A DNA stretch of 26,579 nucleotides, taken from UHGV virus genome UHGV-1484038; one strand, written 5' to 3'. Under the pieces are notes generated by a model. That model was not told the DNA's origin and made no database searches. It worked only from the letters and a program-made list of their open reading frames with translations. The stretch comes from a virus. Both the position numbers and the translations under genes were made by a program. Shown here piece by piece: positions 26,300-26,579 of this stretch; positions within the stretch are counted from its first letter, which is position 1, and each line of letters opens with the position of its first letter.

Positions 26300-26524
26300 C
26301 ATCCGGCGCACAGGACAAAACTGATACGCACAAAGCTTTGCACTGTATTGCAAGGCTTTGTGCTCTCCTGTGGATGTGTGTCTACATATTTGAAGATTGT
26401 TGTGCCGTATTTGTGACATACGCATGAAAACATCATGCATCAACTTTCTGTTTGTGCCATCAACTATAACTTAGTGAATGCGGTTAATGCTTGCTAAAAC
26501 AGATAGTTATGATTGGTGCTACAG

Positions 26525-26570
26525 ATTCGTAATGCGAAGGTCGTAGGTTCGACTCCTATTATCGGCACCA
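26525..26570 (+). other. Partial tRNA-Thr 3' end (46 nt: anticodon-loop region through CCA) = prophage attachment-site core
   Basis: ATTCGTAATGCGAAGGTCGTAGGTTCGACTCCTATTATCGGCACCA contains a T-arm (GTAGG-TTCGACT-CCTAT), acceptor 3' strand and CCA, but the preceding 30 nt cannot form the acceptor 5' strand, D-arm or anticodon stem. From memory it matches the 3' end of enterobacterial thrW, the P22-family att core. Confidence 0.65.
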
Positions 26571-26579
26571 TTAAAATCA

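Follow-up and report, generated by a model that had tools for sequence, protein, structure and literature searches.

Two questions are raised by the right-hand end of the viral genome UHGV-1484038. Does this end lie at the boundary of an integrated prophage, and what is the role of the inverted repeat found just inside it? The window, as the term is used here, is the whole stretch of DNA which was analysed, 26,579 nucleotides long, and the end under study covers positions 26300-26579. The original prediction held that the window ends with the 3' part of a tRNA-Thr gene acting as the duplicated att core of a prophage, and that the inverted repeat upstream of it is an arm site for integrase, Xis or IHF. 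The first of these ideas is well borne out by the comparisons presented below; the second is not. The features of the end to which we refer in the first part of the text are these:

24918-25694, + strand: tail fibre gene (PHROG tail fiber families, E = 3e-59)
25694-26299, + strand: tail fibre assembly (chaperone) gene tfa (Pfam Caudo_TAP, E = 7e-28; PHROG 105, E = 2e-69)
26314-26524, + strand: P arm of an SfX/mEp213/HK446-type attP, from the identity to HK446, mEpX2, HK75, HK542, ECP1 and SfX
26525-26570, + strand: att core, the 3' part of thrW including CCA, from the identity to thrW and to the published SfI/SfII/SfV/SfX/P22 core
26571-26579, + strand: nine bases past the core, TTAAAATCA, host DNA or the start of the P' arm, from comparison with K-12, attR junctions and the metagenomic locus L188

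The att core

The window has one copy of the 46-mer ATTCGTAATGCGAAGGTCGTAGGTTCGACTCCTATTATCGGCACCA, which matches without a mismatch on the + strand at 26525-26570 (0.00 copies expected by chance), and the context at the window end reads ...ggtgctacag + ATTCGTAATGCGAAGGTCGTAGGTTCGACTCCTATTATCGGCACCA + ttaaaatca. The alignment to thrW which had been proposed as a check gave identity at 46/46 positions, namely to positions 31-76 of the tRNA-Thr(CGT) gene thrW of both E. coli K-12 and strain 730V1. The core therefore spans the anticodon loop, the variable loop, the T arm, the 3' acceptor strand and CCA, and the identity with thrW ends sharply at 26525. ARAGORN called 0 tRNA genes in the whole window and Rfam gave no match to a tRNA family, so that a full tRNA at the window end, for which a scan had been suggested, is rejected. 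Since no tRNA was called, and since the 45 nt upstream of the core resemble the 5' half of the tRNA no better than shuffled sequence does, 26525-26570 is a 3' tRNA fragment and not a gene. The possibility that the P-arm bases beside the core are a decayed tRNA 5' half was considered separately and rejected, the local alignments in the window, P22 and 730V1 scoring no better than those of shuffles.

The original prediction equated the core with the thrW 3' end used by P22-family integrases. This is correct: the att core published for SfI, SfII, SfV, SfX and P22 is the same 46-nt string, letter for letter (PMC3636060), and integration and excision at the thrW site have been published for SfI and other members of the family (PMC3636060).

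The P arm and the neighbouring genes

The last 880 nt of the window are 98.2-98.3% identical to the coliphages mEp213 and mEp043. In the GenBank records of these phages (JQ182733, JQ182734) these bases are annotated as a 'prophage attachment site' resembling thrW, and 12 nt past the core, on the other strand, come int and xis. The record of HK446 (JQ086372) has the same attachment-site annotation on the homologous bases. From 26314 onward the window is 93.6-95.1% identical to HK446, mEpX2, HK75, HK542 and ECP1, the genes upstream being different, and the P arm of SfX, again with different genes upstream, matches from 26329 onward with 93.6% identity. Because the matching phages carry different upstream genes, the P-arm block goes with int and not with the tail genes, and as judged from these alignments 26314-26579 is the P arm and core of an int-att module which is separate from the tail-fibre module. 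The Int protein of mEp213 is 54% identical to P22 Int and its Xis 42% identical to P22 Xis. With P arm and core matching the annotated attP of mEp213, mEp043 and HK446, we consider it very probable that a temperate lambdoid phage has the P-arm half of its attachment site at 26314-26579, that its target is thrW and that it uses a tyrosine integrase of the P22/SfX family. An att junction of this kind is ordinary; the site has been published already and is already annotated in close relatives.

The gene adjoining the att region is tfa, which ends 226 nt ahead of the core, and thus the tail-fibre genes do adjoin the att boundary as predicted. The homology with mEp213 begins at ~25657 and covers only the last ~40 nt of the tail fibre gene. 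mEp213 and many prophages encode an identical Tfa protein, likewise beside this P arm. The gene order in the window is RusA, Q, lysis genes, HNH, terminase, head, contractile-tail baseplate, tail fibre and tfa, and apart from the right-hand end the window resembles Citrobacter phage Omnitron and SEN34-like myoviruses, not mEp213. Since the mEp213 homology begins only at ~25657 and the remainder is myovirus-like, tfa and att form a mosaic block which is common to the siphovirus mEp213 and the myovirus of the window. Among 5426 E. coli genomes and 50,697 phage records none is identical to the window. A 65-mer across the tfa/P-arm junction is absent from 185,579 species-representative genomes and is found in one IMG/VR contig, which ends before the core.

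Prophage end or free attachment site

In the P22/SfX family integration takes place by Int-mediated recombination between the core of attP and the 3' end of thrW, which is identical to it. A complete tRNA gene is thereby restored at attL, beside int, and the P arm and the core fragment remain at attR, the far end of the prophage. The end of the window, a core fragment preceded by a P arm, would correspond to the attR state.

This architecture can be seen complete in two bacterial genomes. In E. coli HCP8S3_I1, the P arm of which is 98.8% identical to that of the window, and in 730V1 one finds proB-proA, intact thrW, int and xis at one end, and then in order lambdoid early genes, structural genes, tfa, P arm and core fragment. 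The two core copies are direct repeats, 37.8 and 42.1 kb apart in these genomes, and a tRNA is called only at the copy close to int. A cognate int (and Xis) is found near the core or at the other prophage end in mEp213, HK446, L188, HCP8S3_I1 and 730V1. Furthermore, what follows the same combination of identical Tfa, P arm and core differs between loci, the break being 1-2 nt past CCA. At least four unrelated sequences occur to the right of the core: a CP4-6-type island, an island encoding an AAA ATPase and an S8 peptidase, an island with a P4-type int, or the phage's own int. At least four unrelated continuations starting 1-2 nt past CCA are the signature of recombination within the core, and we infer that such recombination has taken place here.

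The nine bases past the core, TTAAAATCA, bear directly on which state the window represents. They are identical to the K-12 sequence following thrW and to K-12-type attR junctions (L002, L186, L187), and the record of an mEp213 lysogen (PV340538.1) has a K-12-type attR junction and ends 12 nt past CCA. The alternative is that the window ends in an unrecombined attP, from a free or circularly permuted phage genome, and not in a prophage-host junction. The whole 880-nt end can be aligned to the attP of mEp213, which has TTTAAATCA at the same nine positions, a single difference from the window, and one attP variant, the metagenomic relative L188, has exactly TTAAAATCA and then P' arm and int. Against this stand the agreement of TTAAAATCA with K-12 and with the junctions L186, L187 and PV340538.1, and the fact that a sequence stopping 9 nt past the core has the look of a record cut at the limit of a prophage. 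We therefore hold an unrecombined attP to be rather unlikely and the window end to be most likely attR.

Candidate arm-type sites

If the P arm belongs to a P22/SfX-type attP, it should be asked where Int would bind in it. Two features of the P arm come into consideration:

26400-26419, + strand: tandem candidate arm-type Int sites, TTGTGCCGT-A-T-TTGTGACAT, with an 11-nt period; the tandem recurs in the mEp213 P' arm
26452-26460, + strand: third candidate arm-type site, TTGTGCCAT, matching the TTGTGMCRT motif

In 7.9 kb of mEp213 the motif TTGTGMCRT occurs in 5 copies versus 0.34 expected, all on one strand and all inside attP: the P arm has a tandem at -125/-114 and one more copy at -73, the P' arm a tandem at +48/+59. 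The P arm of the window has three copies, at 26400, 26411 and 26452. In P22 it is TGGGACR which is repeated, at -125, -114, -60, +49 and +60. It should be noted that these counts are illustrative, because the patterns TTGTGMCRT and TGGGACR were read off the same sequences in which they were counted. The positions of the repeats are kept and their sequence changes with the integrase, which is the behaviour expected of arm-type sites, and we infer that the three TTGTGMCRT repeats of the window (26400, 26411 and 26452) are the most likely arm-type sites of Int.

Structure and conservation of the dyad

The inverted repeat, in the following called the dyad, lies 161-197 nt upstream of the core. It was originally placed at 26321-26356; the repeat is indeed present, but its coordinates are 26328-26363, a shift of +7, and it is larger than first described. 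The element and its flank are:

26328-26363, no strand assigned: dyad element, candidate RNA hairpin or terminator, from its fold, distribution and weak covariation
26310-26327, + strand: left flank of the dyad, CAGGACAAAACTGATACG, a diverged copy of TGAGACAAAACTGAGAC, from 38 P-arm variants and >100 other loci

Its parts are GCACAAAGC (26328-26336), GCTTTGTGC (26355-26363) and the palindrome CAAAGCTTTG (26331-26340), and in full it consists of two 15-nt arms (26328-26342 and 26349-26363), 14/15 complementary, around a 6-nt loop. Its predicted RNA fold has an energy of -25.1 kcal/mol (z = -4.9) for the + strand and of -23.3 kcal/mol (z = -2.7) for the - strand. The left flank, 26310-26327, contributes an A-rich tract; on the int-sense strand this tract is rich in U. 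The whole dyad element is ~55 bp long and has the consensus TGAGACAAAACTGAGAC-ACACAAAGCTTTGCA-CTGGAT-TGCAAGGCTTTGTGC.

The conservation of the stem was analysed in 39 distinct variants which had been gathered without regard to the hairpin. Compensatory double changes are seen at three stem pairs versus ~0.5 expected, a weak covariation; most of the substitutions in the stem have no compensating change, and conservation is as high in the loop as in the stem. For the window an outer helix of 7 bp can be predicted (26309-26315 with 26366-72). Loci with a different left flank do not conserve this helix, and it was dropped as a sib-like extension of the stem. Partial deletions of the dyad are found in some loci (L006, L009 and L038). 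A search for a known RNA family in Rfam gave only sub-threshold miRNA noise for the dyad, and the small ORFs which run over it, 26266-26427 (+) and 26099-26443 (-), have no family match.

Distribution of the dyad beside integrase modules

IMG/VR was scanned with the inner part of the hairpin, and the 138 loci found to bear the element were then classified. An int gene to the right of the dyad, reading towards it, is found in 83/138 loci, divided as follows:

46 loci of 138: IntS/P4-type int to the right of the dyad, reading towards it, stop codon 14-27 nt away
23 loci of 138: P22-type int to the right of the dyad, reading towards it
13 loci of 138: mEp213-type int to the right of the dyad, reading towards it, ~225 nt away
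1 locus of 138: lambda int to the right of the dyad, reading towards it

The other 55/138 loci are mostly attR junctions or short contigs. The genes to the left of the dyad are convergent in 78/134 contexts and co-directional in 56/134, gtrA and oacB being examples of the latter. The ~55-bp element is thus found at the 3' side of at least four types of integrase module (IntS/P4-like, P22, SfX and lambda). It is ~95% conserved over at least four integrase types and several genera, and its orientation relative to int is fixed.

Among individual phages the dyad is present in lambda (27474-27510), where on the int-sense strand it lies 28-64 nt past the hairpin of tI/sib; in phage 434, where ~110 bp of the 3' end of an IntS-type int lie between the dyad and a lambda-type tI; in P22, at -102 to -69 from the core, between the TGGGACR arm-type sites; and in Sf101, a phage which integrates at sbcB. 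In E. coli K-12 it is found in CPS-53, between the intS stop codon and yfdG. In all, at least 1876/5426 complete E. coli genomes carry it, almost always unannotated. Its sequence was not found in the searchable literature, nor did we find a paper describing the element. By this distribution the element is common to many lambdoid integration modules and is not specific to the integrase of the phage in the window. For the function of the dyad the strongest clue is where it lies, always 3' of the int transcription unit.

A possible hairpin or terminator at the end of int

We tentatively favour a model in which the dyad works as RNA, forming a hairpin or terminator which closes the int transcription unit, because of the location 3' of int, because GC-rich hairpins with T-run terminators occupy the slot of the dyad in other IntS-type phages, and because of the compensatory changes in the stem. 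The dyad would close leftward transcription of int and face the rightward late and tail-fibre transcription which converges on it. In a phage of the mEp213/SfX type it would be joined to int only in the circular state, as is the case for sib in lambda; the order in mEp213 is int, core, P arm, dyad, and in the prophages the dyad is at the end opposite int. A stable stem-loop thus stands at the 3' end of a transcription unit, 14-27 nt past the stop codons of the IntS-type genes, and at junctions of convergent genes.

Directly 3' of the stem there is no U-tract on either strand; the tails read UCUCCUGUGG on the + strand and GUAUCAGUUUUG on the - strand, the latter with a U4 run 7 nt away. The consensus dyad and the P22 dyad have a U run ~3 nt past the extended stem, and still they fail the terminator scan. 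This simple scan is negative for the dyads of the window, P22, K-12 and lambda alike, and it decides nothing because it misses the proven tI terminator of lambda as well. For the K-12 copy, transcript 3'-end data were sought in Term-seq supplements and none were found.

A possible binding site for CII

The main rival model, which we find unlikely, reads the dyad as a binding site for CII/C1, the activator of lysogeny in lambdoid phages. It would be either a rightward promoter giving an antisense transcript across att and int, or a CII-bound roadblock or insulator. The feature in question is:

26338-26361, + strand: three helically phased tetrads, TTGC-N6-TTGC-N6-TTGT, in the dyad; CII/C1 activator consensus, 1 versus 0.04 expected

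The first two tetrads, TTGC-N6-TTGC, occupy 26338-26351 and the third, TTGT, 26358-26361. The triple motif occurs once in the window versus the 0.04 copies expected, and the P22 dyad has three perfect TTGC tetrads, but single TTGC-N6-TTGC matches are unenriched (3 versus 1.8 expected; 7 versus 4.5 expected), and much of the motif comes free with the TTGCA/TGCAA palindrome. The variants point both ways. The unpaired sixth base of the loop, which completes the middle tetrad, is T in 39/39 of them, and some changes retain TTGY yet break stem pairs; on the other side, variants with TTAC or TCGC as the middle tetrad do occur. The record of phage 434 (OL657226.1) annotates two CII sites on the homologous bases, an annotation which is a consensus match and not an experiment. 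The gene content of the relatives is in line with this model, in that the related prophage L299 encodes a CII-family regulator and has its other TTGC-N6-TTGC sites at the places expected for pRE and paQ and none in xis; a paQ-like site is also found within the Q gene of the window, on the opposite strand. It speaks against a promoter that no -10-like hexamer is found at the pRE or pI spacing (~13 nt after the second tetrad), that the conserved element ends ~5 nt past the third tetrad with differing right flanks, and that the implied transcript would be antisense to int, with no obvious benefit for lysogeny.

A possible relic of module exchange

It is quite unlikely, in our judgement, that the dyad is a functionless relic or linker, kept by crossovers within it when lambdoid phages swap int modules. 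The flanks on both sides switch abruptly at the edges of the dyad and occur in many combinations, the ~110-bp IntS-type int remnant in 434 resembles a fossil of such a module replacement, and the partial deletions in L006, L009 and L038 agree with a lack of function. Conservation of ~95% across at least four integrase types and at least 1876 E. coli genomes would, however, be hard to maintain without selection, and the weak compensatory covariation in the stem likewise speaks against a relic.

The proposed arm site for Int, Xis or IHF

The proposal in the original prediction, that the dyad is an arm-type site for the phage's own Int, Xis or IHF and a part of the recombinogenic attP, has fared worst. 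In its favour are that the dyad lies within the block which moves with int and not with the tail genes, that the P22 dyad sits amid the TGGGACR arm-type sites, that both outer ends of the dyad are TTTGTGC and so resemble the arm-type motif TTTGTGCCAT, and that the P22 and SfX-type Xis proteins are homologous (42%). It is nevertheless very unlikely, because the dyad is found beside IntS-type int, is absent from the thrW attP of 730V1 which has the same class of arm repeats, and shows no match to the IHF consensus WATCAANNNNTTR with up to 1 mismatch in 26300-26579. In CPS-53 and the IntS-type phages the dyad cannot belong to att, because att there lies upstream of int; these IntS/P4-type modules, with an unrelated TorI-type RDF, and the lambda-type modules conserve the dyad equally well, and the SfX-type dyad (-197 to -162) lies outside the outermost arm-type tandem (-125). 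The phased direct repeats in the dyad had also been considered as Xis sites, an idea which was dropped when the dyad was found beside IntS-type and lambda-type modules. In P22, where the dyad is amid the arm-type sites inside attP, it may have a role at the DNA level.

Implications

The att finding fixes the right boundary of a thrW prophage. A useful correction is that the dyad is probably not part of the site-specific machinery of this integrase. There is some chance that the ~55-bp dyad element is an undescribed functional element of lambdoid phages which marks the outer edge of the integration module, whatever the integrase, and which is possibly a preferred point of crossover; its role may be that of a bidirectional terminator or insulator, or of a CII-responsive site. 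The dyad is present in the well-studied phages lambda and P22, apparently without a described role. Should it be a terminator, an insulator or a CII site, a small gap in the map of lambda, just past tI/sib, would be closed, and if it does have a function it would be a practical landmark for delimiting int modules in prophage annotation. We regard the dyad as a small lead of modest interest and not as a discovery.

Comparison with known systems

The closest known systems are the attP sites of mEp213, mEp043 and HK446, whose P arm and core are 93.6-98.3% identical to the window; mEp213 and mEp043 have in addition the tfa gene in common with it. These phages differ from the phage of the window in being lambda/HK97-like siphoviruses, the latter being a SEN34/Omnitron-like myovirus, and int is visible in them whereas the window ends 9 nt past the core. 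SfX, SfI, SfII, SfIV, SfV and P22 have a 46-nt thrW core identical to that of the window, but these Shigella phages and P22 carry gtrABC beside attP where the window has tail-fibre genes. P22 is also similar in the layout of its arm-type repeats (-125, -114, +49, +60) and in having Int and Xis homologous to those of the mEp213 type; it differs in that the repeats are TGGGACR and not TTGTGMCRT, and in that the dyad lies within its P arm.

For the dyad three comparisons are relevant. The prophage CPS-53 (KplE1) has the same dyad, ~90% identical, 30 nt past the intS stop codon, but its integrase is of the P4/IntS type, its att is argW and att is upstream of int. The CII-dependent promoters pRE, pI and paQ resemble the dyad in the tetrad motif and its phasing; the dyad differs from them in having no -10 element following it and in being oriented antisense to int. 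The tI/sib retroregulator of lambda, finally, is like the dyad a hairpin beyond att on the int-sense strand, at a similar distance from the core, and for both the link to int exists only while the phage is circular and is broken in the prophage. The two are non-homologous in sequence, the dyad lacks an adjacent U-run, and lambda has both sib/tI (27543-27578) and its own copy of the dyad.

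The mosaic joint and the thrW junction

A mosaic joint lies near the end of the tail fibre gene. To the left of position 25657 all of the window is SEN34/Omnitron-like myovirus, whereas the block which carries the tail fibre assembly gene tfa and the att region (25657-26579) is 98% identical to the siphovirus mEp213. Identical copies of the 201-aa Tfa protein occur in 106 blocks of the collection, behind lambda-like as well as myovirus tails.

The tRNA gene thrW is a stacked insertion hotspot (L005 1641-2759, L184 7342-10826 and L190 7041-8243, and 649-1857 of L299, a related prophage in E. 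coli HCP8S3_I1). What comes immediately past the attR core fragment of the prophage varies by strain: some have a CP4-6-like island there, some a further island with an integrase, and some one that encodes an AAA ATPase together with an S8 peptidase.

The dyad element in other genomes

The dyad element, the inverted repeat which stands beside many integrase modules, was located in lambda and in K-12, and next to it in phage 434 an apparent remnant of an integrase gene.

27474-27510 (L179 775-811), dyad element in phage lambda, just past the tI/sib hairpin
2467732-2467767 (L180 2233-2268), dyad element in prophage CPS-53 of E. coli K-12, in the intS-yfdG gap
OL657226.1 24690-24820 (L183 1240-1370), apparent 3'-end remnant of an IntS-type int gene in phage 434

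The element is unannotated in both the lambda and the K-12 record, and no paper printing its sequence was found in the searchable literature. Phage 434 has kept about 110 bp between the dyad and a lambda-type tI/sib, and this stretch reads as the 3' end of an integrase gene of the IntS type (...MMQWW.GWLDEKV...). It looks like a fossil left by replacement of the int module; the annotation of OL657226.1 has a 49-aa hypothetical CDS here on the opposite strand.

Genes elsewhere in the window

3720-4271, HNH endonuclease gene
4286-4804, Rha-family regulator gene
4859-5554, 231-aa ORF on the strand opposite to these two genes, no family match
977-990, minus strand, TTGCGAGAACTTGC, within the Q antiterminator gene (690-1313)

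The HNH and Rha genes (3720-4804) have the lysis cassette on one side and the DUF2280 and terminase genes on the other. In prophage L299, tRNA-Thr(TGT) and tRNA-Asn genes of the prophage itself separate Q from the holin gene (23985-24140); the equivalent position in the window is without tRNA genes. For TTGCGAGAACTTGC, matching sites are present within the Q and cII genes of L299 (24395-24408 and 30987-31000), and its xis has no such site.

Comparison with lambda and P22

The placement of TTGCGAGAACTTGC is like that of lambda paQ, the CII-dependent antisense promoter, which likewise is on the strand opposite to Q.

Candidate arm-type repeats are found at equal offsets from the core (-125, -114, +49 and +60) in the attP of P22 (L078 1376-1612) and of mEp213 (L001 4201-4438). 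In P22 the distal pair shares bases with the generic flank to the left of the dyad element, with TGAGACA changed to TGGGACA, which looks as though P22 had taken this flank over for its arm sites. The positions are equal, but the candidate repeat itself differs, being TGGGACR in P22 and TTGTGMCRT in mEp213.
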